64,000 bases of DNA from Myxococcota bacterium (GCA_036012755.1 DASCPX010000016.1:128001-192000); one strand, 5' to 3'; counted from the stretch's first letter, positions 19,494 to 61,030 are shown. The notes: generated from the letters alone by a model not told the origin. Numbers and translations are program-made.

Positions 19494-20822
19494 GTGAACC
19501 TGTTTCTCGCCCTGTCGTGCACCTACGAGCCTCCTGGCGGTGGGCGCCAGGCCGTGTGCAGTCCCTCGGCCGCGTTCGATGGCGACCTCGGGCGGAGGAT
19601 GGGCCTCAGCAGCCACCTCGAGTGGGGCGAGGCCAGCGAGGCGCGAGACTTCGAGCTGGCCGGGTGGGAGGACCTGGGGGTCGGCGTCGTGCGGCGGGAC
19701 CTGACCTGGTCGGTGCTGGAGCCGGCCCGAGGACAGTGGGACTTCGCCCCCGCCGATCGCGCGGTGGAGGCCATGGAGTCTGCCGGGGTAGAGCCGCTGG
19801 GGCTCCTGGACTACGGCAACAGCTGGGCCAGCGAAGACGGCGAGGGCATGGGGCCTCCCGATGATCTCGCCGACTTCGGCGCCTACGCCACGGCTGTGGC
19901 CCAGCGCTACGAGGGGCGCATCCACAGCTACGAGGTCTGGAACGAGCCCAACGCGGGCCTGGCCTTCTGGAAGCCGGAGGAGGACCCGGCGGCCTACGGG
20001 GCGCTGCTCGTGGTGGCCGCGGACGCCATCCACGCGGTCGACCCAGAGGCCGAGGTCATCTTCGCCGGCGTCTTCCACCCCGACCTGGGACTGAACACGC
20101 CGGGCGAGGAGTTCATCGCTGCGGTGCACGAGGCGGTACCGGACTTCGCCGAGCACATCGACGCCATGGCCTTCCACCCCTACCGCTACCCCTTCACCGC
20201 GCCAGAGGACGACGAGTTCCAGCGCACCCTCGAGCAGGAGCTGTGCGATCTCCGGGACTTGAACGCCGAGGTCGGTGCCGGAGAGATGCCGCTGCACATC
20301 ACCGAGCTCGGCTGGCACACCGCCATCGATGCCCTGACTCGAGGCGCGACCCAAGAGCAACAGGCCAGCTACCTGGTGCGCAGCTCCGTGATCGCCTTCG
20401 CCCACGGCGTCGAGTCATTCCACTGGTACACCTTCCGCGACTCCGGGGACGACGACGCCAACCAGGAGCACGCCTTCGGGCTCTACGGCTGGGACGAGGA
20501 CCCCACCACGGCGCCCGAGCCCGAAGCCAAGGCGGCAGCGGTCGCCTACACGGTGCTCGTGCGGATGCTCGGCGGCCACGACACGGTCGTCGACCTCGCC
20601 GAGCTCCTCGGGACAGAGGCCCACGTCTACGAGCTCTCCGGCGGCGCTGGTCGCACCCTGGTCTTCTGGGACCCCTCCGGCGAGACCGAGGTGCTCGTGC
20701 CGGGGCGAGGCACCGCCTCGCTGATCTCGATGCTCGGCGAGGAGTCCGAGCTCCGCGCTCGAGGCGGCGCCTTCACGGTCCAGGCTGGCAACTCTCCGAG
20801 CTACCTGGAGCTCCCGGAGTAG
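19494..20822 (+). CDS. Clan GH-A glycoside hydrolase (GH39/GH5-like) lipoprotein
   Basis: EVWNEPN acid/base, FHPY, ITELGW nucleophile; MNLFLALSC lipobox. Confidence 0.82.
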   Translation: MNLFLALSCTYEPPGGGRQAVCSPSAAFDGDLGRRMGLSSHLEWGEASEARDFELAGWEDLGVGVVRRDLTWSVLEPARGQWDFAPADRAVEAMESAGVEPLGLLDYGNSWASEDGEGMGPPDDLADFGAYATAVAQRYEGRIHSYEVWNEPNAGLAFWKPEEDPAAYGALLVVAADAIHAVDPEAEVIFAGVFHPDLGLNTPGEEFIAAVHEAVPDFAEHIDAMAFHPYRYPFTAPEDDEFQRTLEQELCDLRDLNAEVGAGEMPLHITELGWHTAIDALTRGATQEQQASYLVRSSVIAFAHGVESFHWYTFRDSGDDDANQEHAFGLYGWDEDPTTAPEPEAKAAAVAYTVLVRMLGGHDTVVDLAELLGTEAHVYELSGGAGRTLVFWDPSGETEVLVPGRGTASLISMLGEESELRARGGAFTVQAGNSPSYLELPE

Positions 20823-20829
20823 CGGCCGC

Positions 20830-21216
20830 CTACTCCAGGAAGAACTCCGACACCTCGGGCGTCTTCAGGTGACGCCAGCTCGCCCACCCGAGTCCACCGA
20901 AGAGCGCCGCGGCGAGGACCGCGCCCCCGAACTCCTGGGTGATGAGCGCCCCGAGCACGGTCGGCAGGCCGTAGAGGGCCCACCAGCCGAGGATGAGGCG
21001 ACGTGCCCAGGGGTGGCGCTGGCGGATCGTCATGATGATGGCGCCGTGGTAGGCGGCGATGAGCAGGCAGAAGACAAAGCCCACGATCCCGACAGCGACT
21101 TCGCCCTGGCCGATGGCCAAGAGCAGGACCAGGCCGAGCAACAGCGCGACTCCGCCCAGCGCCCAGGCGGTGAAGTAGGCGAAGAAGATCAGGGTCGGGG
21201 TCTCGGTGCGGGACAT
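20830..21216 (-). CDS. Small multi-pass membrane protein
   Basis: Four hydrophobic segments; GAGGA RBS. Confidence 0.7.
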   Translation of the reverse strand: MSRTETPTLIFFAYFTAWALGGVALLLGLVLLLAIGQGEVAVGIVGFVFCLLIAAYHGAIIMTIRQRHPWARRLILGWWALYGLPTVLGALITQEFGGAVLAAALFGGLGWASWRHLKTPEVSEFFLE

Positions 21217-21262
21217 CTGGCTTCCTCGAATAGCCCGCCTCTGGGCGCGAGTCTATGCGACG

Positions 21263-22439
21263 TCACTGCAGGCGACGCAGGGCCGAGGCCAGCTCGAGTG
21301 CTCGCCCGAGGGCGGCGGCGAGCTCGCCGAGTCCCTCAGCTCTCAGTGTGACGCCTTCGTCGTCCACAGAGGACGCCGGGTGGCGGTGGACGACCTCCAG
21401 CAGCGGGCCGACGAAGTCCTCGTCGTCGAAGAGGGCGACAGCTCCTGGCTCTCCGCCCACCGCGATCAGGCTGTCGAGGACGGGGTTGTGGAGGTCGATC
21501 GGCTCTTGGACGTTGCCCGAGCGGTCCGCGTGGACCACCTGAAGGTCGAAGGGTGGGTCGATGCGGACCTTCACACAGGTCTCCCGGCTGCCGAGGCGAC
21601 TCACCCGGACGGCGAAGCCATCGATCTCACCGGAGAGCTCGTCTTCGTGGACCTCGAGGCCCAGATCCTCGGCCGCGTCGACCCAGATGTGCGGCAGCGG
21701 TCGCTCCTCTCCGCTCTTGCTGCCGCGTATGGCGAGCTCGTCGTCATCGTCGTCGTCATCGGCCAGGTACTTGCCGAGAGCTCGGATGAGGACGAACCCC
21801 AGGGTCAACAGCGCCACTGCGACCGAGCCGATCTTCCACCAGGCGAGGCGCTCGACGGTCGGACCGGGGTCGCCGTGTCGCCAGTCGAAGTCGAGGCGCT
21901 CGGCGAGGTCCTCAGCCGTAATCGCCGTGGTGGGTCCGTCCATGTGGCGGACCCCCCCCCAGTTCGTTCCAGTAGAGCACCGGTTCACCGGGCTCGGTCG
22001 GTGCGGGGAGGTCGGTCACGAGCACCCCAGGCGTGCTCCTGTCGGTGACGCTTCCCTGGACCGGCGCCCCCGAGAGCCGGGGGCTCCAGATCTGTTTTCG
22101 TTCATAGGGCAACGAGTTGCGGATCGGAAAGCAGGTCGGATCCTGCGACGGGTATCGAAGCAGGGCGAGCTCTTCGTCCCTCCGGACCACCTGTGCCTCC
22201 ACCCGGTTGCCGTCGGTGAACCACAGCTCCACGCTGTCGTCGTCGACGAGCAGCTCCGCGGCGGCGAGGGCGAAGCCCGCGGGACTTATGACCAGGGCCT
22301 GACCGCCCCGCTCCAGTCCGGGCATGGCGGCGTGGACGTTGTCGAGCTCGTAGATGCTGGTGTGGATCTCGCCCGTGCAGTGTTGGACCGTGAGCAGGCC
22401 CTCCTCCGGATTCGCACAGGCCAGGGACAACAGCAGCAT
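21263..22439 (-). pseudogene. Frameshifted lipoprotein: degenerate trypsin-like domain + TM + C-terminal domain, split at a G9 tract
   Basis: MLLLSLAC start; VISPAGFAL..AQVVRRDEELALL..GEPVLYWNEL resembles trypsin_2; G9 at 21952-21960; G8 would fuse it to ORF 21263..21988. Confidence 0.6.
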
Positions 22440-22508
22440 CGAGCCCGTCATGCTACTCGGCCATCCCCACGTCGTAGGATCCGCAGGATCAGGCTCGAGG
22501 TGGATTAA

Positions 22509-22841: not shown

Positions 22842-22865
22842 TCTGGAGAGTCGAGGGAGCGACAA

Positions 22866-24233: not shown

Positions 24234-24261
24234 GCCCCTGGACCCACTGAGCGCGGCTGTC

Positions 24262-25221: not shown

Positions 25222-25252
25222 AGTCCTCGCCCGTTGGTCCGATGAGTGGGGC

Positions 25253-26055: not shown

Positions 26056-28182
26056 ATGCTGATCGCGCTTTGCGCCCTGTTGTCCGACGACGTCCGTGCC
26101 GACGAGGGCATGTGGCTGCCCGAGCAGCTCCCCGACATGGGCGAGGAGCTCGCCGGCATGGGCCTGGAGCTCTCTGCCGAGCAGCTCGCCGACACCAGCC
26201 AGGCGCCGCTGGGGGCCATCGTGAGCTTCGGCGAGTACTGCTCGGCGAGCTTCATCTCTGCCGATGGGCTCATCGGCACCAACCACCACTGCGTCACGGG
26301 GCTGCTCCAGTTCAACTCGGACGCCGAGCACGACTACGGCACCGACGGCTACCTCGCCGAGACCCGCTCGGACGAGCTCTCCGGAGGCCCCACGGCTCGG
26401 GCCTACGTGGTCGACGACATCACGGACGTCACGGAGTCGGTGAAGGCCAAGGTCCGCCGCTGGACCAAGGACAAGAAGCGCTACGAGCTGGTCGAAGAGG
26501 CCAAGAAAACCCTCGTGGCCGAGTGCGAGGAGACCCCGAACCACCGCTGCCTCGTCGCCGAGTACTACGGCGGTCGACAGTACCGGCTCATCTCGCGGCT
26601 GGAGATCAAGGACGTGCGAGTCGTCTACGCTCCGCCCGACTCGGTCGGGAACTACGGGGACGAGATCGACAACTGGATGTGGCCGCGCCACGCGGGCGAC
26701 TTCTCCCTGGTGCGGGCATACGTCGCCCCGGATGGCTCCAGCGCCGAGTACAGCGAGGACAACATCCCCTACTCCCCGCCTCACCACCTCCAGATCGACG
26801 CCACCGGCGGGGCTGACGGGGAGTTCGTGATGGCCGCCGGATACCCCGGCCGCACCTACCGCTACCGGACCGCGCGCTCGATGGCGTTCTCGGCCGAGAC
26901 CGCCTACCCCCACGGTGTCCAGATGGCGGACGACATCCTCGCCATCCTCCACGCCGAGTCCGCCAAGGACCCGGAGGGTGCCGCGCGGCTCAAGGCCCCC
27001 ATCGGCTGGATCTCCAACGGCCGCAAGTACCGCCAGGGCAACCTGGACAACTTCCAGGGCTCCGGCGTCGTCGAGCGCAAGAACAAGCAGTGGGCCGAGC
27101 TCGTCGCGTGGGTCGAGGCGGATCCGGTCGACACGAAGATCTATGGCCCGGTGCTGGGGGAGATGGAGGCCATCCAGATCGAGGACGAGGCGCTCTACGA
27201 GCAGGAGGTCACCCTCGGCTACATGATGTGGCTCGCCAGCCAGCTCGACGCGGCCCACACGGCCTACCGGTGGTCCATCGAGCGGGACAAGTCCGATCTG
27301 GAGCGCGACAGCGGCTACCAGGATCGCGACCGCGAGCAGACGGAGCAGTGGTTCGCAGAGGCGCAGGAGACCACCTGGATCCCGGCGGATCGCGTCCTGC
27401 TCGGCCACTTCCTGGGCCGCATGCAGGCCCTCCCAGAGGACAAGCATCCCGAGGCGCTGGATGCCTGGCTCGAAGAGATGGGTGGCGTCGAGGCGGCCCT
27501 GGAGATCCTCTACGCAGAGGGCAACCTCCTCACCGCAGACCAGATGGCTGCGCGCCTCGATCTCGGCGCCGCCGAGCACCGGGCGGACGAAAACCCGTGG
27601 ATGCAGCTCGCCATCGCGTTGGAAGACGGCTTCCTCGCGCCGAAGCGGGAGCTCGACGAGACGCGCCAGGGTGCCTGGCTTCGCCTCATGCCGCTGTACA
27701 TGGAGGCTCTGCGCCAGAGCCGGGAGCAGGTCTACCCGGACGCCAACAACACCCTGCGCCTGACCGTCGGCCACGTGAAGGGCTACCGGCCGGCCGACGC
27801 GGTGATCTACGAGCCGAACACGACGCTCTCGGGCATGGTCGCCAAGCGTGGTGACTGGCCCTTCGACGCCCCCGAGCGCCTCGTCGAAGCGGCCGCTGAC
27901 GTCGAGGACAGCCGCTGGTACGACGCGGAGCTCGGGGACGTGCCTGTCTGCTTCCTGAGCACCCTGGACTCGACCGGCGGCAACTCGGGCTCGGCCACGC
28001 TCAACGCACAGGGGCAGCTCGTCGGCTTCCTCTTCGACGGCAACTACGAGTCCATGAGCGCCGACTGGCTCTTCGACGACGCCGTGACCCGCTCGATCCA
28101 CGTCGACATCCGCTACGTGCTCTGGATCCTCGAGACCGAAGGCGCCACGCACATCCTCGATGAGCTGGACATCTCCGAGTGA
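26056..28182 (+). CDS. S46 family dipeptidyl-peptidase
   Basis: ADEGMWLP, TNHHC, DNWMWPRHAGDF, GYPGRT, TGGNSGS, FDGNYES. Confidence 0.95.
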   Translation: MLIALCALLSDDVRADEGMWLPEQLPDMGEELAGMGLELSAEQLADTSQAPLGAIVSFGEYCSASFISADGLIGTNHHCVTGLLQFNSDAEHDYGTDGYLAETRSDELSGGPTARAYVVDDITDVTESVKAKVRRWTKDKKRYELVEEAKKTLVAECEETPNHRCLVAEYYGGRQYRLISRLEIKDVRVVYAPPDSVGNYGDEIDNWMWPRHAGDFSLVRAYVAPDGSSAEYSEDNIPYSPPHHLQIDATGGADGEFVMAAGYPGRTYRYRTARSMAFSAETAYPHGVQMADDILAILHAESAKDPEGAARLKAPIGWISNGRKYRQGNLDNFQGSGVVERKNKQWAELVAWVEADPVDTKIYGPVLGEMEAIQIEDEALYEQEVTLGYMMWLASQLDAAHTAYRWSIERDKSDLERDSGYQDRDREQTEQWFAEAQETTWIPADRVLLGHFLGRMQALPEDKHPEALDAWLEEMGGVEAALEILYAEGNLLTADQMAARLDLGAAEHRADENPWMQLAIALEDGFLAPKRELDETRQGAWLRLMPLYMEALRQSREQVYPDANNTLRLTVGHVKGYRPADAVIYEPNTTLSGMVAKRGDWPFDAPERLVEAAADVEDSRWYDAELGDVPVCFLSTLDSTGGNSGSATLNAQGQLVGFLFDGNYESMSADWLFDDAVTRSIHVDIRYVLWILETEGATHILDELDISE

Positions 28183-29126: not shown

Positions 29127-29627
29127 ATGCCCCCCAAGAAGAAGAAGCGAAGCCGAGCAGAGGCGCTGGTCGTGCTGTTGTTCTGCGCGCCGATCGCGTT
29201 GTTCGCCGGGCGCGAGACCGCCAGCTACGCCGACGCGCTGTTCTGGCGGGCGGGCATGCTGCCCTCTCACGACATCGTCGAGGCCGAGGTCGTCCACAAG
29301 GAGCGGATCACCCGGCGAGCGAGCCGTCCGGAGCAGCTCCTGCTGACCTGGGCCTGGGTCGATGAGGAGGGCGAGCACCAGGACCTCCAGCCCGTGGCGG
29401 CGAGCACCTATGACCGCACGGACATCGGCGACTCCATCACCGTCCTCGTCGACGAGGGGGGCCAGAGCATCATCTCGGGCTGGAAGGACAACGGCGAGCG
29501 GCTCTTCTACGACGCCGCCATCACCGGGGTGCTCGGGCTGCTCACGCTGGTCTTCGGGCTCGCCGGACTGGGGGGCATCAAGCGGCTCTTCAGCGGTAGA
29601 GCTCCACCCAGTCGCGGAGGTAGCTAG
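29127..29627 (+). CDS. Two-TM membrane protein (DUF3592-like layout)
   Basis: TM - beta-rich loop (IGDSITVLVD) - TM. Confidence 0.6.
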   Translation: MPPKKKKRSRAEALVVLLFCAPIALFAGRETASYADALFWRAGMLPSHDIVEAEVVHKERITRRASRPEQLLLTWAWVDEEGEHQDLQPVAASTYDRTDIGDSITVLVDEGGQSIISGWKDNGERLFYDAAITGVLGLLTLVFGLAGLGGIKRLFSGRAPPSRGGS

Positions 29628-30819
29628 GCCGCGCCTCGATCCAGTTGCGCATGCACTGGAGCTCGTTTTCGCGCTGGAGCTCGCTGTACCAGCTCCGCGT
29701 GTCCTGGGAGGAGAGCTCGTCGATGAGCACCAGGCGCTCCTCCATCGTGGCGACGAGGTCGGCCTCTTCCATGCGATCGGCGTGGTCCAGCAGGCCATCG
29801 AAGATGAGGTCCCTACACTCGACGTCGCTCCAGCAGCGGCTCGTGAGGTAGCCGTTGGAGTGATCGGCCGGGTTCGTGCCCAGCTCGCCGCAGTGGGGGG
29901 AGGCGGACCAGGGGTACCAGCCGAAGGCCAGGTCGGTGCTCCACGGGGTCCAGTGGAAGCGCCCGGTCGAGGGCACGTGGTGGACCCGGTAGTTGTTGAT
30001 GTTCCAGCCGTAGTTGTCGTAGTGCGCGATGGCCATCTCGGCTGTGATCTGGCGGATGAACTCGTCCCAGTCGACGAGCTCTGCCGTGGCCTCCTTGAAG
30101 TCCGTCGCCGTGGCGGCCTCGCAGAGCTCGAACAGCGCCAGGGTGTCGCCCTCGGTGTCGGTCTCCCAGCAGTCGCAGCCGGCGTCGGCGAGATCGCAGC
30201 CGTAGTTGAAGGAGCCGGCCTCCCAGGTGCCGCCGTCGCCGTCGTCGAACCAGCGGTCGTTGAAGACGCGGTTCTGCTTCTCGAGCAGAAGGTAGATGCC
30301 GTAGTCCTCGCCGTTGATGGAGAGGTGGGCATAGGCCGAGCGCGACGCCGGCACCTGCACCGTGCGGAAGTAGAGGTAGGCGAGGTGCTCGTGCAGGTTG
30401 CTCGGGTCGTAGGTCATGTTGTGGACGTAGACCGACGACAGCCCGTCCCAGTGCTGGGTCTCGACGTAGCGGTTGAAGTCCAGGATCAGCGAGGGCTTGT
30501 CGTCGATCGTGCGGTACTGGGTGTGGCCCTTCAGCCGCGCGCCGATGTCGATCTCCTCTCCGTCGTCCAGGAGCAGCTGCACCTCTGTGTAGGTCGTCGG
30601 GTTGTACTGCAGCGAGGTCCAGGCGTAGTCGCCGATCTCCAGGTGGATCGTGTGCACGTAGCTGTCGTCGAAGGTGACCTCGCCGTCGGTCCCCGGGTCG
30701 ACGCCGCCGACCTCCTCGAGTCCCGTGTCGGGCACGTACTCCTCGCCGGGCACCACGAAGACCCCGGTGGAGCCGAGGGGGACGGAGGCGGTGCAGGCGA
30801 AGAGCAGGAGCAAGGACAC
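29590..30819 (-). CDS. CotH kinase-family lipoprotein
   Basis: GARLKG, KPSLILDFN, EHLAY, YGIYLLLE, HYDNY, NNY, PWSTDLAFG; MSLLLLFAC start at GTG 30819. Confidence 0.85.
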   Translation of the reverse strand: MSLLLLFACTASVPLGSTGVFVVPGEEYVPDTGLEEVGGVDPGTDGEVTFDDSYVHTIHLEIGDYAWTSLQYNPTTYTEVQLLLDDGEEIDIGARLKGHTQYRTIDDKPSLILDFNRYVETQHWDGLSSVYVHNMTYDPSNLHEHLAYLYFRTVQVPASRSAYAHLSINGEDYGIYLLLEKQNRVFNDRWFDDGDGGTWEAGSFNYGCDLADAGCDCWETDTEGDTLALFELCEAATATDFKEATAELVDWDEFIRQITAEMAIAHYDNYGWNINNYRVHHVPSTGRFHWTPWSTDLAFGWYPWSASPHCGELGTNPADHSNGYLTSRCWSDVECRDLIFDGLLDHADRMEEADLVATMEERLVLIDELSSQDTRSWYSELQRENELQCMRNWIEARPSYLRDWVELYR

Positions 30820-30830: not shown

Positions 30831-31730
30831 TCAGGGGCCGCTGACCGTGCCTTGTCCACCCGCGAAGCCGAACCAGCCCGGGAAGCTGTAGTAGTCGGCG
30901 GTGCCTCCGGGGGTGCCGCCGCTCCCGCCGGCTGCGGCGATGCGCAGGACCACCTCGCCGTCGACGGTCCACGAGGACAGGGTGCCCAGCTGTGTCTCTC
31001 CAGAGCTGATCAGCGAGACGTAGTCGGGGTTCTCGTTGTTCCAGCCCCACAGCGCCGTGGTGCTCGGCGAGCCCGAGGCGTTGTTCAGGCCCCTGATGAA
31101 GGGGATCGCCACCAGGTGGTTGAAGCTGCCGCCGCTGCAGCGGACATCCCAGGCCTCCATCGAGAACTCGCCGCTGGAGTAGGTCGTCTGGTTCCTCAGG
31201 GCGTTGGAGCCCCCGAGGAAGGCCGTGAAGTGCTCCGTGTCCGCCGAGATGGTCATCGCGTCCCGGTCGAAGACGTGGGTGTTCGCCGTGTGGTCGTCGT
31301 CCTCGTCGATGAACTCCACGACGTACCAGGCAGCGTCGGTGGTGTCGTAGTAGCCGAGCAGCACGTCCTCGTCTTCGTCCACGGTCCCGGTGACGGGGAG
31401 CGTGACGGTGACGGGCTCGGAGAAGGTCGTGTCGTCCGGGCCGAAGTCCCAGGCTGCGGTGACGACGTCGTCCGCTGGGAGCTCGACCTCGCCGTCCTCG
31501 AGCTGCCGGATCGTGATCTCGACGTCCGCATCGAGGGCTCCGGCGGGCACGGTCACCGAGGCGCCACCAGGGTGCTCGATGGTGCCGCCGTCAGGCCCGA
31601 TGACCTCTGTGACCTCGCCCTCCGGGTCACTGTCGTCGGTCTGGGAATCGTCGGTCTGGACCTCGGAGTCGTCGGTCGGCGCGACCGGATCGTCCGGATC
31701 CCCGTTGCAGGACAGGAGGAGCAGCAGCAT
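30831..31730 (-). CDS. Lipoprotein with ZU5-like domain
   Basis: MLLLLLSC; IGPDGG..VTVPAGAL..FGPDDTTFSEPVTVTLP..TEHFT. Confidence 0.72.
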   Translation of the reverse strand: MLLLLLSCNGDPDDPVAPTDDSEVQTDDSQTDDSDPEGEVTEVIGPDGGTIEHPGGASVTVPAGALDADVEITIRQLEDGEVELPADDVVTAAWDFGPDDTTFSEPVTVTLPVTGTVDEDEDVLLGYYDTTDAAWYVVEFIDEDDDHTANTHVFDRDAMTISADTEHFTAFLGGSNALRNQTTYSSGEFSMEAWDVRCSGGSFNHLVAIPFIRGLNNASGSPSTTALWGWNNENPDYVSLISSGETQLGTLSSWTVDGEVVLRIAAAGGSGGTPGGTADYYSFPGWFGFAGGQGTVSGP

Positions 31731-32969: not shown

Positions 32970-33710
32970 TCACTTCGCCCGAGTCACGCAGATGCCGCTG
33001 CCCTCGAAGTGGACCGAGTTCGCGTTGCCCGAGTCGCAGGTGGAGCCCGAGTCGCTCGTGACGTGGTAGGCGGAGCAGCTCCCGGAGCGGTAGACCGGGC
33101 AGAAGTGGTGCATCTCGAGGGTGTTGTCGCCCTTCTCGAGCCAGAAGGTGCCGACGTAGATCAGCGAGGCGGGCGGTCCGCCGCCGTTGTCCGCGTCGCG
33201 CACGACCCAGTCGGAGCCGCAGTTGCCCCACCGAGGCGCCCCGCTGGGGTTCGCGCTGTTGGGGACGCGGTAGTAGGCGGACTCGTTGCGCTGGCTGGAG
33301 CCCGACTCGGCGATGTGCGAGCTGTAGATGTGGTACCAGGCAGAGGTGCCGGTGCTGACGGTGGCGTCCATCTGTGTCGGGTCCCAGGACAGGACGTAGA
33401 TCGAACTCGACGAGGTGGCCTTCGTGCCCCCGTCGCAGTCGTCGTGCCAGTCGCTCGGCGGGTCGCCGTTGGGTGGGTCTCCGAAGTCCCCGGGCGGATC
33501 GTCGTCGTCCGGAGGCTCGTCGTCGGGATCGTCCGTGTCGTCGTCCGGGACCTCCTCCTGCGGCAGGCTGTCGTGCAGGTGGTCCGTGTCACCGCCCTCT
33601 CCGCTGTCGTCGTACAAGCCGGGGGTGCGGACGGGGTGGTTGGGTTCACGGACGTCTTCCGGCGTGTGGACGCCGTAGTCCATGCAGGCGAGCAGGAGGA
33701 GACTGGACAT
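32970..33710 (-). CDS. Hypothetical lipoprotein, acidic linker plus Cys-containing beta domain
   Basis: MSSLLLLAC at ATG 33710. Confidence 0.72.
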   Translation of the reverse strand: MSSLLLLACMDYGVHTPEDVREPNHPVRTPGLYDDSGEGGDTDHLHDSLPQEEVPDDDTDDPDDEPPDDDDPPGDFGDPPNGDPPSDWHDDCDGGTKATSSSSIYVLSWDPTQMDATVSTGTSAWYHIYSSHIAESGSSQRNESAYYRVPNSANPSGAPRWGNCGSDWVVRDADNGGGPPASLIYVGTFWLEKGDNTLEMHHFCPVYRSGSCSAYHVTSDSGSTCDSGNANSVHFEGSGICVTRAK

Positions 33711-33915: not shown

Positions 33916-35460
33916 ATGCTCATCGTCCTCGCGCTCGCCTGCTCGGATCAGCAGCTACACCAGATGGTCGCAGGCTCCGGCGGCGAGGGACCGCAGATCC
34001 TCGTCGAGCCCGACCTTCTCGACTTCGGCACCCTGGACGCCGACGCGGATCCCGTGATGCAGACCTTCACGATCTCCAGCGTGGGGACAGAGGGTCTCGC
34101 GCTGAAGGAAGTGCAGCTCCGCGACGGCGACTACGCCAGCTTCGAGCTCCTCACAGAGGTCGAAGCCCACGCCATGGAGCCAGGCGAGAGCATCGCGATC
34201 GACGTGCTCTTCTACCCCTGGGGCAACGACCAGGAGGCTCGCGCGGTCGTCGTGAGCAACGACGAGGACACGCCGAACTGGCCGGTGGACCTCTTCGGCG
34301 ACGCGGACGTGCCGGAGCTGGACGTGGACCCGGATCCGCTGGATCACGGCGACATCGGGGTCGGCTGCGTGCGCGAGAACATCGCCACCATCACCAGCGT
34401 CGGCGCGGCGCCGGTGACCATCTCTGCACTGGAGGTCTCCGGAGACGGCTTCACCATGCTCTCTGGTCCCACCCTCCCGCTGACGCTTCAGCCCGGGGAG
34501 ACCGCCGAGGTCGACATCGAGTTCGCCCCCAGCGTGGTCTACGACTACGAGGGTGCCCTGGTTGTGACCTCGGACGAGGCGATGGGTGTGCGCGAGGCCC
34601 TGCAGCTCGGCTCCGGCGGCGTCGACGGCAGCTACACGGACGACTGGTACATCCCCGAGGGGGACCCGCCCAGCGACATCCTCTTCTCCGTCGACGCCAG
34701 CGGCTCGATGGGCGACGATCTCTGGGACCTCGCCCAGAACTTCGAGACCTTCATCACCGAGCTCGACAACTACACGAGCGACTGGCAGGTCATCATCGGG
34801 AGCAGCGACGACGGCTGCAACTCCGGCGGCATCCTCAAGCCCACCACGGCCAACTACATCCAGACCTTCAAGGACAACATCCTCTGGGGCGGCTTCTTCG
34901 CTGACTGGACAGAGGCGCTGTTGACCATCAACGTCAACGCGATCGAGAACACCGACAGCGGCGAGTGCAACTCGGGCTTCATGCGCGACGGGGCGCTCTT
35001 GCACATCATCGACGTGACCGACGAGCCCGAGCAGTCCGTCGAGATGGGCGGCCTGCCCTGGGACGAGAACGTCCAGAAGCTCTGGGACAAGAAGGGCAGC
35101 GCCAGCCACGTGCGCATCTCGGCCATCGCGGGGCCGGTGCCTGGTGGCTGCGACTCGGCCGATCCCGCCACCGGCTACGCAGAGGCGGTCACCGCCACCG
35201 GCGGCGTGTTCCTGTCCATCTGCGACGACTGGGCCAGCGCCGCGAACCTCGCCCTGTTGGCCGCCGCCAGCGTGAACCAGTCCACCTTCGAGCTCTCCAA
35301 CCCCGCTGTCGAGAGCACGATCATCGTGAAGGTCAACGGCACCGAGCGCTACGACTGGACCTTCGACGCCGGGCGCAACGTGGTCATCTTCGACGACGAC
35401 TACCCCTCTGGTGGAGACAAGGTCGTCATCCACTACGACGGCGTCGAGAGCTGCGACTGA
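33916..35460 (+). CDS. Lipoprotein with Ig-like (ASH/choice-of-anchor D) domains and a vWA domain
   Basis: MLIVLALAC; LDFG..SND; DILFSVDASGSM MIDAS; VTDEPEQS; SICDDW; GGAGG RBS. Confidence 0.82.
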   Translation: MLIVLALACSDQQLHQMVAGSGGEGPQILVEPDLLDFGTLDADADPVMQTFTISSVGTEGLALKEVQLRDGDYASFELLTEVEAHAMEPGESIAIDVLFYPWGNDQEARAVVVSNDEDTPNWPVDLFGDADVPELDVDPDPLDHGDIGVGCVRENIATITSVGAAPVTISALEVSGDGFTMLSGPTLPLTLQPGETAEVDIEFAPSVVYDYEGALVVTSDEAMGVREALQLGSGGVDGSYTDDWYIPEGDPPSDILFSVDASGSMGDDLWDLAQNFETFITELDNYTSDWQVIIGSSDDGCNSGGILKPTTANYIQTFKDNILWGGFFADWTEALLTINVNAIENTDSGECNSGFMRDGALLHIIDVTDEPEQSVEMGGLPWDENVQKLWDKKGSASHVRISAIAGPVPGGCDSADPATGYAEAVTATGGVFLSICDDWASAANLALLAAASVNQSTFELSNPAVESTIIVKVNGTERYDWTFDAGRNVVIFDDDYPSGGDKVVIHYDGVESCD

Positions 35461-50587: not shown

Positions 50588-50697
50588 CCCAGAGTCAGGG
50601 TGCGCGCATGTCCGATCCAGCCGGGCTCCTGCAGCGCGTCCCCGAGTTCGCCCGGGGCTGCGGCAGCTGGCCCGACACCCTGACGTAGGATCGCTCC

Positions 50698-52599
50698 GTG
50701 CTGTTGATCCTGCTCAGTTGCCTGACGGCGCCGGCTTCCTACCGGGCCCTCGTCCGCGACGTCATCGACGCCGACGGGGATGGCTTCTACGACGAGGAAC
50801 AGTGGGCTGGAGACGAGCACCTCGACGACCTCGACCTGCTCCCAGGGGATTGCAACGACGACGACCCGTTGGTGAACCCGGACGCGGAGGAGATCTGCGA
50901 CGGCGTCGACAACGACTGCGATGGTGGGACCGACGAGGACCTCGAGGAGCTCGTCGGCTGGTACATCGACGATGACCGGGACGGCTTTGGCGACCCCGAC
51001 CAGCCCCTCGGGGCCTGCCCCTTCCCGGACAACGCGGTGGAGGACGACACGGACTGCGACGACGCCGACGCCGGTGTCTTCCCCGGCGCCGCAGAGGCCT
51101 GCAACGGCGTCGACGACGACTGCGACGGCGAGCCCGACGATGGCGCGATGATCACCTGGTACGAAGACCCGGACGCCGACGGCTACGGCTCCGGGACGGC
51201 GACGGAGACCTGCGACCCCGGCGAGGGCTACGCCCAGGAGCCCGGCGACTGCGACGAGTCGGACCCCGACATCAACCCTGGCGAGACCGAGGTCTGCAAC
51301 GACGGCATCGACAACGACTGCGACGAGACCACCGACTGCCGCTGGTCTGGGGTGGTGTCCGCCGAGACCCTCGACATTGTCTACGGGGAGGTCGACGGGG
51401 ACTCATTCGGCGCCCGTCTGGCATTGGGTGACATCGACGGCGCAGCCGCCAACGACCTGCTGGTGAGTGCAGCTGACGCGTGGGTAGAGGGCGAGGAGCC
51501 AGGTAAGGTCTATCTCTTCAAGGATGGCTTGGCGGCCACCGCCACGGACGCCCACAGCATCTTCATCGGCCCCGAAGACCAAAGCGGATTCGGAGTTGGC
51601 GTCGACCTCTTCGATCTTGACGGAGACTCTCGCGATGAGGTGATCGTGGGTGGAGACCGCGCTGGCGGAACTGTTCACGTGTTCACGCGGCCGTGGAACG
51701 AGCTGAGCGAGGCCTCGACTGCGACGACGGTGTTCACGCCGTCGGGCAGCTCGGGGCGGTTCGGACACGCCGTAGCTGGCTTCGTCGACATCGACGGAGC
51801 CGGGACACCTGGAATTGGTGTGGGCGCCATCTCCGCGTCCACCACGGGCGGGATCTATGCTGTCCCGTATCAGGGCAGCGGCGAGTTCGACCCCGTGAGC
51901 ACGGGCACGCTCGTCCTGGGAGAGGGCGACGGCGACGAGCTCGGTGAGGTGGTCACCCGGGGAGATCTCGACGGCGACGGAGTTCCCGAGTTGTTGGCTT
52001 CAGCTCCCGGCTCTGATCGGGTCTCGGACGAAGGGGGAGCGGCCTACGTGTTCGAGCTTCCGCTGTCCTCGACCGACATCGGCGATGCACGGTCCGTCAT
52101 CGGAGGCGCCATCGAGAACGGCCGCCTCGAGGGCATCAACATCTCCGACCTGGACGACGACGGCGTAGACGACCTCTTCCTCGGCGCGCCGGCTACAGGC
52201 TGGGATCCGGCAGGGACCTTGTATGTCTTCACCGATCTGGAGTCAGGGGCTGTTTCGACGGCGACCGCGGACTTGAGGGTCGACGGAGAGACCGCCTACG
52301 GCGGTTTCGGCTATCGGGGCCTCGTGCTCGACCTCGACAACACGGGCGGGCCGGATCTGGCTGTCGCTGCCTCTTTGGAGGGGGCTGTCTACCTGTTCTA
52401 TGACGCAGCCGCGTCGGGCGTGCTCACCGCAAGCGATGCAGACGGCCATGTCGAGCTCACCTCGACGCAGAAGCTCCCGCTCGTCGCGACGCAGGCCTGG
52501 TCCCCCGACGGACAGACGCTGGTGTTTGGATGCAAGACCTGCGTGCTCGATTCCGCCAAGACCGGGGCTTTCCTCTGGCTGGATGCGTCAGGCCCGTGA
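50698..52599 (+). CDS. Lipoprotein with MopE-related Cys/Asp repeats and FG-GAP propeller
   Basis: MLLILLSC; DCND..VNP.A.EICDGVDNDCDG x3; GDLDGDGVPELL..AP, DLDDDGVDDL..GAP. Confidence 0.85.
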   Translation: MLLILLSCLTAPASYRALVRDVIDADGDGFYDEEQWAGDEHLDDLDLLPGDCNDDDPLVNPDAEEICDGVDNDCDGGTDEDLEELVGWYIDDDRDGFGDPDQPLGACPFPDNAVEDDTDCDDADAGVFPGAAEACNGVDDDCDGEPDDGAMITWYEDPDADGYGSGTATETCDPGEGYAQEPGDCDESDPDINPGETEVCNDGIDNDCDETTDCRWSGVVSAETLDIVYGEVDGDSFGARLALGDIDGAAANDLLVSAADAWVEGEEPGKVYLFKDGLAATATDAHSIFIGPEDQSGFGVGVDLFDLDGDSRDEVIVGGDRAGGTVHVFTRPWNELSEASTATTVFTPSGSSGRFGHAVAGFVDIDGAGTPGIGVGAISASTTGGIYAVPYQGSGEFDPVSTGTLVLGEGDGDELGEVVTRGDLDGDGVPELLASAPGSDRVSDEGGAAYVFELPLSSTDIGDARSVIGGAIENGRLEGINISDLDDDGVDDLFLGAPATGWDPAGTLYVFTDLESGAVSTATADLRVDGETAYGGFGYRGLVLDLDNTGGPDLAVAASLEGAVYLFYDAAASGVLTASDADGHVELTSTQKLPLVATQAWSPDGQTLVFGCKTCVLDSAKTGAFLWLDASGP

Positions 52600-53177
52600 G
52601 GCTACTGGCGCTGGCCTGCCACCCGACGTCCGACGCTGAGCTCATCGCAGAGTCCATCGCAGAGCTCACGGCAGGCCGTCCGAAAGCCGCCGCGGCCATC
52701 TGCCTTCAGGTTTCGCAAACCCAGGCAGCGGCAGAGTGCGCGTGGAGCGTGGCCGCTGTCGTTGCCGAGAGCGATCCGGCAGCAGCCACAGCAATCTGCC
52801 GGACTCTCTCCGGGGCACACGCCGACGAGTGCGCATTCGTAGTGGCAGAGGCATCGCAAGACCCTGAGCTCTGCTCGGGCACCGGTGGACTCGAGGTGAA
52901 GTGCCAGCTCCACTTCTACAGGGACGGGCTGAGCGCATGGGTGCCTCCGGACGCCCGCGTCGGCCAGGTTGATGGGCTTGCGCAGGAACACATGACTGCG
53001 TTGGGGCTAGCGGTGGAGACCGAGGCCGCCTGGTTCAGGACCTACCGGTACGTCCTCGCCCACACGGCAGAAGACACCACCACCGAAGAATGTCAGACGC
53101 TTGGACCGATTCGCGCAAGGGCGTGTGAGCGAGCTCTGGAGATGGACCAGGCGCGCCCTGGCACGCACCGCCCCTAG
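52596..53177 (+). CDS. Cys-rich helical lipoprotein
   Basis: MRLLALAC; GTGA overlap with the upstream stop; repeated C-x9/10-C. Confidence 0.65.
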   Translation: MRLLALACHPTSDAELIAESIAELTAGRPKAAAAICLQVSQTQAAAECAWSVAAVVAESDPAAATAICRTLSGAHADECAFVVAEASQDPELCSGTGGLEVKCQLHFYRDGLSAWVPPDARVGQVDGLAQEHMTALGLAVETEAAWFRTYRYVLAHTAEDTTTEECQTLGPIRARACERALEMDQARPGTHRP

Positions 53178-53473
53178 CCGCAGCTCTCGTACCACTCCGG
53201 GTCTTCGGGCTCCGGGAAGGGCTCGTCGGGGTCGATGCAGTTCTCTGTGTAGTCCTTCACCCACTCCTTGACCTCGGCGCGCGGCACCGGGCTCGGGTTC
53301 TCGGCGCAGGCCGCGTAGGGGCCCTCTTCGTAGAGCGCCATCCAGTCGTCCTGGCAGTCGCGCCAGGGTTGCTCCTGCTCGCACTTGCAGTGCGCCTTCG
53401 TGAGATCCGACCAGTAGTCGTCGACCGTGTAGGCGCAGGCCAGGAGGAGGAAGAGCACGGCGCCCACTAACAC
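53174..53473 (-). CDS. Small Cys-rich lipoprotein
   Basis: LFLLLAC lipobox; 6 further Cys; start may be GTG 53458. Confidence 0.7.
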   Translation of the reverse strand: MLVGAVLFLLLACAYTVDDYWSDLTKAHCKCEQEQPWRDCQDDWMALYEEGPYAACAENPSPVPRAEVKEWVKDYTENCIDPDEPFPEPEDPEWYESCG

Positions 53474-53536
53474 CTCGGAGCGCCTCGTCTATCGGGCATC
53501 ACCGCGAGCGCGGAGACCCCTGCCCTGTTCGAGCCC

Positions 53537-54094
53537 TCAGGTCTGGGACAGCGCCTGCAGGGCGAAGGCCGTCTCGCTCGGTGCCAGCTCACCCCTGGCG
53601 CTCAGGGCCGCGATCTCGAGCCGCCTCAGGAAGGGATGGTCCGGCATCTGCTCCAGCGCTGGTCTCAGCACGGCGAGCGAGGCAGCGGGCCGGTCGTCGC
53701 GCAGCAACCTCACGGCGGCCTCGCGGGTGGTGTCCGCTTGGACCCGATCCCAGACGGAGGGGACCGCCGCCTCCCGCACGATCCTCAGCCACTCGGCCAG
53801 GCGCTGCGGGTCATAGAGGCAGTCCAAGGCCTCCTCGACGACCTTCTGGGCTTCTGTCGACCAGGAGGTCCTGGTACGGAGGGCCTCGAGCAGTCGACGC
53901 TGGAGCACATGGGGGCGCCACAGCGCGTGTGGATCCGCCGCCACTTCGGGCAGGAGCGCCAGCGGAGAGAACAGCAGCAAGGCCTCGCGGCGTCGATCCG
54001 GAGAGAAGAGCTCCAGCATGTTCACGTCATTCATGGCGCGGCAGGCAGTGGACCTCTCACGGGTCCGAACGAGAAGACGAGCGAATGCGGTCAT
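53537..54094 (-). CDS. Hypothetical protein with a C-terminal TPR-like segment, coupled to the transposase-like gene
   Basis: ATG 54094 overlaps the upstream TGA; alternative start 54034. Confidence 0.55.
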   Translation of the reverse strand: MTAFARLLVRTRERSTACRAMNDVNMLELFSPDRRREALLLFSPLALLPEVAADPHALWRPHVLQRRLLEALRTRTSWSTEAQKVVEEALDCLYDPQRLAEWLRIVREAAVPSVWDRVQADTTREAAVRLLRDDRPAASLAVLRPALEQMPDHPFLRRLEIAALSARGELAPSETAFALQALSQT

Positions 54095-54843: not shown

Positions 54844-54856
54844 GGCCGCCCACAAC

Positions 54857-57254: not shown

Positions 57255-57295
57255 GGTGTCGGTCTATCCCACCGAGCGACCAGGAACTGACCGGG

Positions 57296-57919: not shown

Positions 57920-57954
57920 CGCTCCCTCCGGAAGGCACCAGGATAGTCCAAAGC

Positions 57955-58505
57955 TCAGTAGGCGCTGGTCGGTGTCAACATCCGCGCGCTGTCCTCGCGC
58001 GTGGCGACGTAGTGCGCTGGCTCGCCGTCGGCGTCGATGTCGATCATGCCGTGGACCTCGAAGTCGTCTCCGAGATCGACCACCCAGCAGGCACCCCGGA
58101 CCTGGCCATCCGGCGACCACCCGAGCTGCTCGAAGCCCCCCCATCCGGCCAGGGCACGGCCGCCCCGTCCAGCGCCGTCACGGGCCGCGGCGTCGGGTCC
58201 GGGATTCCCAGGTAGCTGTCGAAGGCGGCGGCGTAGGCCAACTCCGCGGCTCGGATGCCGTCGACGTTGGAAGGCACCTCTGCGCGCTTGGCGCGCCAGC
58301 CCATCTGGAGCATGCTCGGGATGGCGATGGCCGCCAGGAGGCCCACAACCACGATGAGCAGGACGCCCGCCCCGAGGACCCCGGCGACGATCCCCCCGAT
58401 CGAGGAGGGCCGCTCTGTCGACGACATCGAGCCACCACAGTGGGGACAGCTGGTCCTGCGCTCGCTGACGTCGCCGCCGCAGTCCCTGCAGATCACTACG
58501 CCTAT
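57955..58505 (-). pseudogene. Paralogous Zn-ribbon-pilin gene with ATA start and G7 frameshift
   Basis: CRDC..CPHCG, LLAAIAIP..RAKRAEVPSNVDGI in one frame; GFEQLGWSPDGQVRG..MIDIDADG in another; shift at 58136-58142. Confidence 0.75.
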
Positions 58506-58538
58506 CGCGGCCTCCAGCGTCCACGATAGACCTACGGT

Positions 58539-59105
58539 GTGCTGCTCCTCTTCCTTGCATGCCAGCCAAGCGCCGATCCTCACTGGGTCGCGATGCAGAC
58601 ATGCCTAGCCATGCCGGGTCTGTACATGGACGGAGCCTCTCAGGCGCTGGCCAGCCGGGCCGTGGCGCAGGAGGAGCTCGAGATCTGGCGCGGTGACGCC
58701 AGCTACGGCGTCGAGGGCTACGGGCCGGTCTACGAAGAGCTCGGGCTCGAGGGCGTCGCCGTCATCCGCAGCAACTCCCTCTGCTCGGTCGACGAGGTCA
58801 GCGACTCCACCGCTACGGTCACGCGAAAGGAGCCCGACATCGAGGCGATGGACCCCTGGAAGATCAAGGAGGTCTGGAAGCTCGAGCTCGTGGCGCGAAC
58901 CCACACCTTCGACATCGGGCCCTCTGATGAGGGCTACCGCGCCTTCCTCGGCCTGAGATCGAAGCGTGGCCTCGCCCTGTCCTCGGAGCTGCTGGTGGCC
59001 CAGGGCCGCTTCGACGAGGCCGTCGAGGAGTACCGCGCGCTCCACGCCGAGTTCCCCGACCCGCGCATCCTCTGGCGCATCCGCCAGATCGAAGCGAAGC
59101 GGTAG
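58539..59105 (+). CDS. Hypothetical lipoprotein with a C-terminal TPR-like motif
   Basis: MLLLFLAC; GRFDEAVEEY..FPD. Confidence 0.7.
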   Translation: MLLLFLACQPSADPHWVAMQTCLAMPGLYMDGASQALASRAVAQEELEIWRGDASYGVEGYGPVYEELGLEGVAVIRSNSLCSVDEVSDSTATVTRKEPDIEAMDPWKIKEVWKLELVARTHTFDIGPSDEGYRAFLGLRSKRGLALSSELLVAQGRFDEAVEEYRALHAEFPDPRILWRIRQIEAKR

Positions 59106-59822
59106 TCACTCCTCCAAGAGCGCGAACTCGTCGAAGTAGACCCCGCCGTTGCCATCGAAGCAGCCGGGGTCCTGGGCCTTGCACTGCCAGAAGATGAGCA
59201 CGGCCTGCAGGATCGCGCTGTCTGTCGGAGCCGTGCCCTTCGCGGTCAGCTCGTGCCAGGTGCCGGTCGCCGAGTCCTTCGTGATCGGGTCGCTCTCCGC
59301 TTCGCCGAGGAGCTCGCCGTAGCCCTCCGAGTAGAACTTCAGCTCGAGCTGGGCGTAGGTGTGCGTCGCGGTCAGGGGGTCGTCTTCGTGGTGCCAGCCA
59401 GTAGCCGACAGCGTGTAGACCGAGCCCGCGGTGGCAGTCGTCTCCTGGTAGATCGCCGTGTCGTTCTCCACGCCCTCGTCCAGCCACTCCCCGTAGAGCT
59501 TCAGCGACTGCGAGCCCTCCGGCGCCGCGAAGGTGTCGGTGCTGTTGAAGAGGGTGTCGCCGGTCGCGACGATCTCGTAGTTGTCCTGGTCCGCCGTGTA
59601 GATCAACCAGTCGGCGAAGCCATCCTCGAAGCCGGGGTTCGAGAGCAGGTTGAGATCCGTGTCGGCGTCGGCGTCGGCGTCCGTGTCGCTGTCCGTGTCG
59701 CTGTCCGTGTCGCTGTCGGCGTCGCTGTCCGAGTCCGAGTCCGTGTCCGCGTCTGTCTCCGAAACGAGCCCGGAATCGAGGGCGTTCAGGCCGGTGCAGG
59801 CCCACAACAGAGCGAGTGTCAT
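59106..59822 (-). CDS. Lipoprotein with D-x dipeptide linker and galactose-binding-like (CBM4/9-like) domain
   Basis: MTLALLWAC; (DS/DT/DA)n; NLLSNPGFEDG..W; VYFDEF. Confidence 0.75.
   Translation of the reverse strand: MTLALLWACTGLNALDSGLVSETDADTDSDSDSDADSDTDSDTDSDTDADADADTDLNLLSNPGFEDGFADWLIYTADQDNYEIVATGDTLFNSTDTFAAPEGSQSLKLYGEWLDEGVENDTAIYQETTATAGSVYTLSATGWHHEDDPLTATHTYAQLELKFYSEGYGELLGEAESDPITKDSATGTWHELTAKGTAPTDSAILQAVLIFWQCKAQDPGCFDGNGGVYFDEFALLEE
59657..59757 (-). repeat. 6/12-bp coding low-complexity repeat (DTDS/DADA)
   Basis: GTCCGTGTCGCT and GTCGGC units on the + strand. Confidence 0.8.
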
Positions 59823-59869
59823 TCGAGCCTCCTCTTCAGCCGGATATCCTCCGACCTCTCGGAGGCTAG

Positions 59870-61030
59870 ATGCTGCTTCTCCTGATGGCCTGCAACGGCG
59901 ACACGGATCCCATCTACGAGGAGCTGGACAGCGATCCCTACGTTCCCTGGCCCGACTCCGGCGACGACGGGACCGACGAGGACGGGGACGGGTGGTCTGT
60001 CGAAGAGGGCGACTGCGACGACGACGACATCTACATCCACCCTGGTTGGGAGGAGTCCGACCAGGAGGGCAACCACACCGACGGCAAGGACAACGACTGC
60101 GACGGCACCATCGACGAGACCTTCCGGGGACTCGTCGTGCTCCAGCAGGGGCGCTGGGATCTCGGTACCAGTTCCAGGATCGTGCTCGTCGACAGCTTCG
60201 GCGAGACAGAGGAGGAGGTCGAGTTCCTCGATCTGAACGTCCAGCCCATCCAGTTCCAGGACAACTCGGGCAAGTGGTACGACTTCACCTTCGAGCTGGC
60301 CCCAGGTGTCTTCGACGGCTGGGCCGTGCTCGGCGAGGATCGGACCACCCACGGACGCCTCATGGTCGAGGTCAGCGAGACCGGCGAGGTCTCCCAGCTC
60401 GTCGACTTCAGCGACGCCGAGGCCTACCCCGGCGGCGCCTGGGGGATCGACGTCCACCCCGACGGCTACTACCTCGTCGCTGGCCTGACCGTGCTCTACA
60501 AGGTCGACCCGAGCGGGCAGGTCGAGACCGTCGCGGAGTTCCTCGACACCGACGGCGAGACCCCCCTGATGCTCGCCTTCGAGGTCGGTGTGGACAACAT
60601 CACCGGTCAGATCGCGGTCTTCGGCTACTACGGCGGCGCGGCGCTGATCGATCCCGAGACCTTCGAGGTGACCTGGGTCATCCAGACGGACTTCGACAAC
60701 ATCACCCACAACATGTGGTCAGCCTCTCACTGGGACACCCGCGGCGGCTGGTACGCCGGCGGCCAGGACTCGGAGGGGTGGAAGGTCTTCCGGCTGAACG
60801 AGACCAACAGCGAGTGGGTCGAGAAGGCCGTCTTCGACGAGTCGTGGGAGCCTCACGCGATGACCGTCGACACGGTCTACGGCGAGTACTTCATGTCCGC
60901 CTACGGTGGCCAGTACCCCGTCGTCTGGGAGCTCGACGCCGAGACCGGCGAGCAGCCCAGCCAGTTCTTCGCGTCCCCTCACAGCGGCACCTACTTCCTG
61001 GACATGTGGGACCTCACGACCCGGTACTGA
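59870..61030 (+). CDS. Lipoprotein with a single MopE-related repeat and beta-propeller-like body
   Basis: MLLLLMAC; DEDGDGW..GDCDD..IHPG..DGKDNDCDG; GGAGG RBS. Confidence 0.78.
   Translation: MLLLLMACNGDTDPIYEELDSDPYVPWPDSGDDGTDEDGDGWSVEEGDCDDDDIYIHPGWEESDQEGNHTDGKDNDCDGTIDETFRGLVVLQQGRWDLGTSSRIVLVDSFGETEEEVEFLDLNVQPIQFQDNSGKWYDFTFELAPGVFDGWAVLGEDRTTHGRLMVEVSETGEVSQLVDFSDAEAYPGGAWGIDVHPDGYYLVAGLTVLYKVDPSGQVETVAEFLDTDGETPLMLAFEVGVDNITGQIAVFGYYGGAALIDPETFEVTWVIQTDFDNITHNMWSASHWDTRGGWYAGGQDSEGWKVFRLNETNSEWVEKAVFDESWEPHAMTVDTVYGEYFMSAYGGQYPVVWELDAETGEQPSQFFASPHSGTYFLDMWDLTTRY

Follow-up and report, generated by a model that had tools for sequence, protein, structure and literature searches.

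The window analysed here is a 64,000-nucleotide (nt) stretch of a Myxococcota bacterium (DASCPX010000016.1:128001-192000), which is G000:C16:128001-192000 in a source genome, G000, that measures 6.73 Mb and is 96% complete. Between positions 19494 and 61030 it encodes thirteen predicted lipoproteins with very short signal peptides. A basic amino-terminal region (n-region) and a membrane-spanning hydrophobic region (h-region) are textbook parts of bacterial export signals. An earlier, sequence-only reading of the window had listed these genes and proposed a lineage-specific minimal signal for export and lipidation, perhaps served by adapted machinery or a dedicated pathway. We conclude, with a probability of about 0.72, that these are genuine minimal signals of the Sec/signal peptidase II (SPase II) type, the end point of gradual shortening, and that they use the standard pathway, perhaps with a permissive SecY.

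All thirteen amino termini were found where that reading had placed them, with Cys at residue 8 or 9, and one of the thirteen signals contains Arg. GTG is the start codon in seven genes, as marked below. The eight starts described as first in their frame are so (19494, 31730, 33916, 39338, 50698, 58539, 59822, and 59870), and a GGAGG ribosome-binding site is present at each of the three starts said to have one (33916, 59822, and 59870). An in-frame stop lies 0–9 codons 5′ of the starts at 59870, 31730, 50698, 58539, 39338, 33916, and 19494; with a stop adjacent (59870) or 3 codons away (31730, 50698, and 58539), a longer signal is impossible. Four of the thirteen starts are less secure (22439, 33710, 52596, and 53458).

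19494..20822 (+): short-signal lipoprotein, GTG start, Cys 9; first start, in-frame stop 9 codons 5′; weak glycoside-hydrolase matches (Pfam GH42, E 5e-5)
21912..22439 (−): short-signal lipoprotein, Cys 8; no Pfam match; start ambiguous by 4 codons (ATG at 22451 gives Cys 12), uncharged with either start
29590..30819 (−): short-signal lipoprotein, GTG start, Cys 9, CotH kinase family (Pfam CotH, E 9e-32); lies 11 nt past where the 31730 gene stops, with GAGG 7 nt before the GTG
30831..31730 (−): short-signal lipoprotein, Cys 8, weak ZU5 match; in-frame stop 3 codons 5′, TAnnnT 6 nt before the ATG
32970..33710 (−): short-signal lipoprotein of ambiguous start, Cys 9; ATG preceded by AGGAG at 6 nt
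33916..35460 (+): short-signal lipoprotein, Cys 9, domains Ig-like (choice-of-anchor D); GGAGG, no earlier start in frame, stop 8 codons 5′; in a homologue at locus L011 the ATG is preceded by a stop at 3 codons
39338..40300 (+): short-signal lipoprotein, GTG start, Cys 8, CAP-domain-like; stop 6 codons 5′, TAnnnT 6 nt before the start; the CAP-like fold is the top Atlas match (PF00188, score 0.95, template-modelling (TM) score about 0.7) and was missed by Pfam at E 0.001
50698..52599 (+): short-signal lipoprotein, GTG start, Cys 8, MopE-type metal-binding motifs and FG-GAP repeats (Pfam); stop 3 codons 5′, TAnnnT 6 nt before the start
52596..53177 (+): short-signal lipoprotein candidate, GTG start, Cys 8, one Arg, the weakest of the thirteen; its start overlaps the preceding gene's stop (GTGA), which supports it; uncalled by the gene finder, no Pfam match
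53174..53458 (−): small short-signal lipoprotein, GTG start, Cys 8; in-frame stop 10 codons 5′ limits Cys to residue 13 at most; GTGs at 53467 and 53473 would give Cys 11 or 13, uncharged too
58539..59105 (+): short-signal lipoprotein, GTG start, Cys 8, weak TPR match; stop 3 codons 5′
59106..59822 (−): short-signal lipoprotein, Cys 9, tether rich in Asp/Thr/Ser; GGAGG, no earlier start in its frame
59870..61030 (+): short-signal lipoprotein, Cys 8, weak MopE motif; TAG directly before the ATG, GGAGG upstream

The Pfam and Atlas domains among these proteins (CotH, Ig-like, MopE-type, FG-GAP repeats, and CAP) are typical of envelope proteins. Clipped signals had also been reported in exported proteins that are not lipoproteins, and the three examples, of signal peptidase I (SPase I) type, are indeed present:

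26056..28182 (+): peptidase S46, clipped SPase I-type signal without an n-region; stop one codon 5′; Pfam S46, E 9e-202
2987..4081 (+): protein with a very short SPase I-type signal; no Pfam match
1785..2987 (+): outer-membrane channel (OMPP1/FadL/TodX-like), short SPase I-type signal; Pfam Toluene_X, E 2e-7; start ambiguous, with in-frame starts upstream at 1692 and 1695

The lipoprotein genes at 59822 (−) and 59870 (+) diverge from starts only 47 nt apart, each with its own GGAGG, so that the promoter of each probably lies inside the other's coding region. A sigma-70 scan of 50400-53700 found no −35/−10 pairs.

Short starts across the genome

Genes were called in G000 with a self-trained dicodon model rather than a standard gene finder. 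A hydrophobic run followed by [AGS]-Cys lies near the 5′ end of 976 of the 5,860 called genes, and the start codons of these 976 peak at Cys position 7–10, with a low shoulder at 12–22. An ATG or GTG places a lipobox-like Cys at residue 7–11 in 773 genes (~13%). Because this filter leaves out charged residues near the Cys, the count was repeated blind to the lipobox, using 1,719 first-in-frame starts that have a Shine-Dalgarno (SD) sequence, a −10-like hexamer, or an overlap with an upstream stop (coupling). The genome-wide histogram of Cys position that the sequence-only reading had proposed as a check came out in its favor: the first Cys falls at residue 7–11 in 367 of the 1,719 starts, with a peak at 8, vs. 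5–19 per position at 13–44, and a peak at 15–25 is absent. The short position recurs in each start class, namely SD-only (150 of 754), −10-only (105 of 356), and coupled-only (55 of 363), in which positions 17–21 account for only 38, 9, and 17 starts, respectively. At the DNA level, ATG followed by six hydrophobic or small residues and Cys matches 123 times in G000, vs. 0 out of frame and 0 reversed. The short-signal trait is far more frequent than chance would give.

The true starts might instead lie upstream, at other or non-canonical codons or behind a frameshifted n-region, so that the short signals would be an annotation artefact and the real ones of normal length. An alternative start giving Cys 13–40 does exist in 246 of the 773 genes, and 192 of the 773 short starts lack any SD, −10, or coupling signal, so that some individual calls will be wrong. 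Canonical-looking alternatives also occur in the window, both at 1785 and at 33710, where initiation at the TTG of 33728 or of 33755 would put the Cys at 15 or 24 and bring in arginines. The artefact may hold for individual genes. For the class as a whole, however, an upstream in-frame start is wholly absent in 408 of the 773 genes, and an in-frame stop lies 0–3 codons upstream in 127. Start signals are also spaced to the short start: SD 4-mers peak at spacers of 5–7 nt (142, 141, and 116 of 773, vs. 7–21 at spacers ≥12), and TAnnnT peaks at spacers of 6–7 nt (91 and 42 of 773, vs. 0–12 at other spacers). The blind set shows no peak at 15–25, as said, and in homologue pairs the short start is retained while the upstream sequence differs. 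The short starts are thus very probably real, and we consider a general annotation artefact scarcely credible.

A TAnnnT 6–7 nt before the start has the spacing expected for leaderless mRNA, and leaderless-type spacing covers 144 of the 773 short-signal genes. The hexamer stands 5–7 nt before 366 of the 1,719 confident starts, which suggests that leaderless mRNAs are frequent in G000. Leaderless-type starts are ~2-fold enriched among short lipoprotein genes (98/313 vs. 233/1,241; P = 3e-6), suggesting that moving the start to the transcription start site was one route by which signals shortened.

Signal composition and the fate of the cysteine

The short signals consist of Met, 4–8 mostly Leu residues, Ala/Gly/Ser, and Cys, without a basic n-region. 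In a set not filtered by charge, K, R, D, and E are absent from 296 of 301. The h-region is 55% Leu, 9% Ile, 8% Ala, and 6% Phe at a length of only 4–8 residues. Ala/Gly/Ser precedes the Cys in 83% of cases with Cys at 7–11, even though that residue was not selected for, and a tether rich in Pro/Asp/Glu/Gly follows it. Among 313 short-signal proteins, 290 have Ala/Gly/Ser at −1 and 193 have Leu at −3. A strict lipobox occurs in only 58 of the 313, residue −2 being Leu in 198, vs. 24 of 38 long signals of the same genome. The second residue is mostly bulky, so the initiator Met is probably kept. These signals are not Tat twin-arginine or basic prepilin leaders, since 296 of the 301 have no basic residue. 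The first part of the mature protein shows no excess of acidic residues over long-signal lipoproteins (P = 0.39 and 0.29).

Short hydrophobic starts are not confined to lipoproteins. Alongside them stand 165 starts without Cys; this class, for which residues 2–7 were required to be hydrophobic and which includes a few cytoplasmic proteins that begin with a β-strand, has an Ala-x-Ala that ends mostly at residue 9–11. Clipped signals were found in families that must be exported, namely LolA (stop 3 codons 5′), BamD, several OmpA-family proteins, and the S46 peptidase; those of LolA and the OmpA family were found without hydrophobic selection.

The existence of this Cys-less class raises the possibility that the Cys of the short signals is not lipidated by Lgt, the peptide being an SPase I leader and the Cys either taking part in disulfides or being acylated by another enzyme; in addition, the signal Cys is the sole Cys in only 32 of the 313 proteins. 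Yet the total number of Cys residues is odd in 226 of the 313 (72%), vs. 60 of 120 and 598 of 1,071 in controls (50–56%), and the small residue at −1 and the disordered tether likewise fit a lipoprotein. The same Cys moreover ends a canonical SPase II signal in homologues. On these comparisons the short-signal Cys appears to behave like a lipidation site, and a non-lipidated Cys seems improbable to us.

Several expected lipoprotein controls were not usable as such. BamD is mostly of SPase I type in the class (19 readable of 30 rows; L019-L048; G000:C149:39893-40549), and the CsgG-like matches are of SPase I type as well. LptE (PF04390) was found in 0 of 22 order genomes and by weak matches only in 9 of 24 other class genomes, a pattern compatible with either divergence or loss. 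As separate observations, one order member (G035) has a BamD with a lipobox, YajC (G000:C27:86883-87275, −) carries an apparent short SPase I-type leader ahead of its membrane helix, and the amino-acid ATP-binding cassette (ABC) solute-binding family PF00497 (SBP_bac_3) has 0 matches in G000, complete as that genome is to 96%.

Relatives, machinery, and the SecY pore

Homologues of the 33916 protein were compared using public start calls for the 120 listed. The closest ones from other genomes have Cys at 9–11 and are uncharged in 7 of 8 cases; one has Cys 19 and Arg. The most distant among the matches listed have Cys at 12–21 with K/R. Several of these homologues are labelled "Myxococcota bacterium" and others Proteobacteria. 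More widely, 54 of 85 best-hit pairs from a relative to G000 match a short-signal protein, and Cys residues that stand at 26 (G159), 15–16 (G036), or 15–18 (G024) in relatives correspond to Cys 7–9 in G000.

The distribution was tracked with a pattern for ATG-started Cys-8 signals only, which is blind to other Cys positions. It matches 123 times in G000, 127 in G005, 95 in G012, and 75 in G007, vs. 9–18 times in six other family members and 2–53 in 26 other order genomes; outside the order, the counts are 4–12 in 12 other class genomes and 0–25 in 203 other phylum genomes. We also surveyed the median Cys position, taking the nearest ATG, in 40–100 kb samples from 21 genomes or genome pairs with 2–16 scored genes each. 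By genus, the median is 8–10 in g1, g4, and g6, 10.5–11.5 in g3, g5, and g7, and 16 in g2. By family, it is 10–11.5 in f7, 10.5 and 14 in f3, 13–14 in f2 and f4, and 18 and 26 in f5. Four outgroups from the class and the phylum give 16.5–21.5. Although the samples are small, they show a gradient, in which signals are long and basic outside the order and shortest in a few genera. Only part of a single Myxococcota order has the trait, and there, as part of our main explanation, the short signals probably mark the end point of a gradual shortening. With real starts, no n-region, SPase I-type signals clipped as well, and a restriction to part of one order, the earlier proposal of a lineage-specific minimal export and lipidation signal appears sound.

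The complete standard pathway for export and lipidation is present in G000, which encodes a single SecA, a single SecY, Ffh, FtsY, SecDF-YajC, and three LepB, along with five Lgt, two LspA, Lnt, two LolA, and two deformylases. The proposal of adapted machinery stood only in part: the change found, of possible relevance to the trait, lies in the SecY pore ring and not in SecA, the signal recognition particle (SRP), or Lgt copy number. The signal-binding groove of SecA shows no informative change, and the acidic SecA residues regarded as n-region contacts lie in an E. coli insertion lacking in order and class alike. Loss of SRP was rejected, as 50 of 51 order genomes gave a match to the Ffh M domain and Ffh aligns to its E. 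coli counterpart over its length; Rfam identified no RNA in four Sec/SRP loci, the scope of that search for SRP RNA being these loci rather than the genome.

The idea of a dedicated pathway fared worse. It would involve a special Lgt or LspA paralogue or an extra translocon part, and G000 does have its five Lgt and two LspA genes, one LspA on a long branch, as well as a candidate part on contig C43. The features concerned are these:

G000:C59:100000-102591: tandem lspA-lspA-lgt-lgt cluster (loci L006, L007, L001, and L003)
G000:C43:68496-69935 (L290:5496-6935): 479-amino-acid membrane protein ending in a SecDF P1 head (E 1e-14)

Expansion of Lgt and LspA as an adaptation was rejected, since class outgroups with long signals have 2–7 Lgt and 1–3 LspA. 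The C43 protein, the sole candidate for an extra component, turned up together with its membrane part in only 4 of 131 class genomes (G000, G002, G289, and G305) and not in the short-signal-rich G005, G012, and G007, in a survey with a 3-sequence model and at most 12 candidates scored per genome; its likeness to SecY is weak (hhalign probability 6%). It is not required for the trait, and a dedicated pathway seems improbable. Two side observations belong here. In LspA, all 12 order rows have Arg/Lys/His at the third residue past the first Asp of the catalytic motif, vs. Asp/Gln in 24 of 24 from the rest of the class, which is one inherited change. Second, very divergent SecY-like membrane proteins occur in G034 (L286:1834-3264, +; Pfam SecY, E 2.5e-4) and G040 (L287:2387-3667, −; E 1.7e-7), with no counterpart found in G000.

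In SecY, all 27 aligned rows from the order have Ala/Ser at residue 187 (E. coli numbering) vs. Ile/Met in 22 of 22 outgroup rows, and a motif listing of eight further SecY loci agrees. A pattern search, counted by eye after five surplus hits, each a second match within its genome, had been set aside, covered 105 order genomes and 26 other class genomes; the 82 order genomes that matched all have Ala/Ser, and the 23 matching genomes from the rest of the class all have Ile. In all 27 order rows, Phe192 is replaced by Thr/Ser/Ala/Val and the plug residue Phe64 by Tyr. Ile187 is a member of the SecY isoleucine ring (PMC2171872), most prl mutations fall in the ring, gate, and plug (PMC3164448, PMC2585858), and many ring substitutions were super-active in a cell-free screen (PMC13537251). 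The order's SecY combines substitutions in the pore ring (Ile187 to Ala/Ser) and the plug (Phe64 to Tyr), as a prl-type SecY would. Its structure model (predicted local distance difference test score 89.5) matches solved SecY at a TM score of about 0.8, which says nothing on gating. A natural, prl-like permissive change at 187 is plausible from the alignments, although that it matters for the trait is a tentative view to which we give somewhat less than even odds. Because the change is order-wide and also present in members with longer signals, we read it as permissive and not as the cause.

We propose that the Leu run alone would target the chain to the single standard SecYEG, through SRP or SecA, and gate it. 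SecY would accept so short a tag through relaxed proof-reading, the replacement of Ile187 by Ala/Ser acting beside the Phe192 and Phe64 changes as in prl mutants. With 6–10 residues the peptide is too short for a bilayer-spanning helix, so the uncharged and perhaps formylated amino terminus may be drawn into the membrane, unpinned at the cytoplasmic face; a retained formyl group would render the whole leader neutral. The Cys could thereby come within reach of Lgt and LspA at the outer leaflet, both of which have their catalytic aspartates inside the membrane region (PMC9360617). Maturation would then take its usual course, with diacylglycerol addition by Lgt, cleavage by LspA, acylation by Lnt, and sorting by Lol. 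Export and lipidation by the standard enzymes are quite likely.

Other routes from the same peptide can be imagined. The proteins might be lipidated by Lgt and left uncleaved by LspA, with the peptide as a shallow co-anchor, or might pass SecY head-first without a hairpin. The frequent Leu at −2 and the scarcity of strict lipoboxes relative to long signals would fit this, as would a peptide too short for the bilayer by established helix geometry, and SRP can protect the N-formyl group from deformylation, as proposed especially for N-out proteins (PMC5454389). Opposed to it are the retained small residue at −1 and Leu at −3, the two LspA genes with motifs that look intact in alignment and that adjoin two lgt, and the presence of Lnt and LolA. 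Longer lipoboxes, moreover, number only 62 among confident starts (39 with K/R) vs. about 300 short ones, so most outer-membrane lipoproteins must belong to the short class. We regard this alternative as unlikely. A bolder version, less improbable in our view but still doubtful, is that a relaxed SecY let signals collapse to a neutral, possibly formylated Met and a few leucines, which would be threaded head-first to the outer leaflet without a hairpin, with Lgt and LspA acting there. If true, this would be a different topology of Sec initiation, serving more than a tenth of the proteome.

Several observations weigh against our preferred reading of minimal SPase II signals on the standard pathway with a permissive SecY. 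Besides the starts without signals, the longer alternative starts, and the rarity of strict lipoboxes described above, there is no charge compensation, as the mature region is not more acidic than that of long-signal lipoproteins. The remaining ring residues of SecY are unchanged in the order (Ile82, 86, 191, 278, and 408). The change at 187 is not unique, because about a fifth of distant representatives have a small residue there: Ala/Ser/Thr occurs in about 28 of 141 scored SecY sequences (150 representatives listed; two mis-hits removed from 30). Nor is it sufficient, because G036 has Ala187 and yet carries Cys 15–18 signals, mostly with K/R. The 82 genomes are not independent evidence, because the change is a single inherited event. 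In E. coli SecY with a normal signal, the log2 values relative to wild type are −0.37 for F64Y, +0.28 for F192S, and +0.47 for I187M (PMC13537251 data S1), so that F64Y and F192S are near wild type with such a signal. The searchable part of those data has no row for I187A/S, and I187 is not named in passages of PMC8082313, PMC8612361, and PMC11470409.

Meaning and comparison with known systems

The short signals are real and occur on a large scale and, if the predicted export and lipidation hold, they depart surprisingly from the textbook signal peptide; the translocon offers a concrete lead. A genome of free-living type in which ~13% of called genes begin with 6–10 uncharged residues would supply hundreds of natural minimal substrates of Sec, Lgt, and LspA, with a tag about half the textbook length, and its graded relatives show the shortening stepwise. 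The SecY substitution makes the question of what enforces signal proof-reading testable with one point mutant. For annotation, lipoprotein predictors built on rules should overlook most envelope proteins of these bacteria, and gene callers may wrongly extend the starts.

The source class may be UBA796 of the GTDB. We found no paper describing the trait in the open-licence literature, a scope that excludes most subscription papers and bioRxiv supplements; the main text of a secreted-proteome paper that includes a UBA796 genome (PMC11495043) mentions neither "short signal" nor "lipoprotein".

The order's SecY resembles the E. coli prlA and yeast sec61 prl alleles, which export precursors with defective signals (PMC3164448, PMC2585858), in combining a large-to-small or polar change in the pore ring with a neighboring plug change. 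Unlike prl translocons, it is natural, fixed order-wide, known from sequence alone, and unchanged at the other ring residues, and position 187 is absent from the prl alleles in the accessible parts of those two papers. The short signals share with SRP-protected, formyl-retaining N-out proteins (PMC5454389) a hydrophobic amino terminus directly after Met, in a genome with SRP and two deformylases, but those N-out proteins are transmembrane segments of inner-membrane proteins.

The clipped Cys-less signals are like canonical Sec/SPase I signals (PMC9360617) in having a hydrophobic run and then an Ala-x-Ala site, alongside three LepB-family genes, and depart from the canonical n-h-c layout in lacking an n-region and in ending their Ala-x-Ala mostly at residue 9–11. 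Canonical lipoprotein signals typically place Cys near residues 19–23, with a mean position of 21.4 in a published lipoproteome, and the G+LPPv3 prediction motif demands both a basic n-region and a membrane-spanning h-region (PMC13068155), which by our computation from that motif sets a minimum Cys position of 13. Like canonical Sec/SPase II signals (E. coli Lpp type; G+LPP, PROSITE PS51257), the short signals have a Leu-rich h-region, Leu at −3, Ala/Gly/Ser at −1, and Cys, followed by small residues at +2 and a polar tether, in a genome encoding Lgt, LspA, Lnt, and LolA. Unlike them, they lack the basic n-region, place Cys at 7–11, and have Leu at −2 in most cases. They would seem to work as SPase II signals do while failing two defining features of the type, the n-region and the length.

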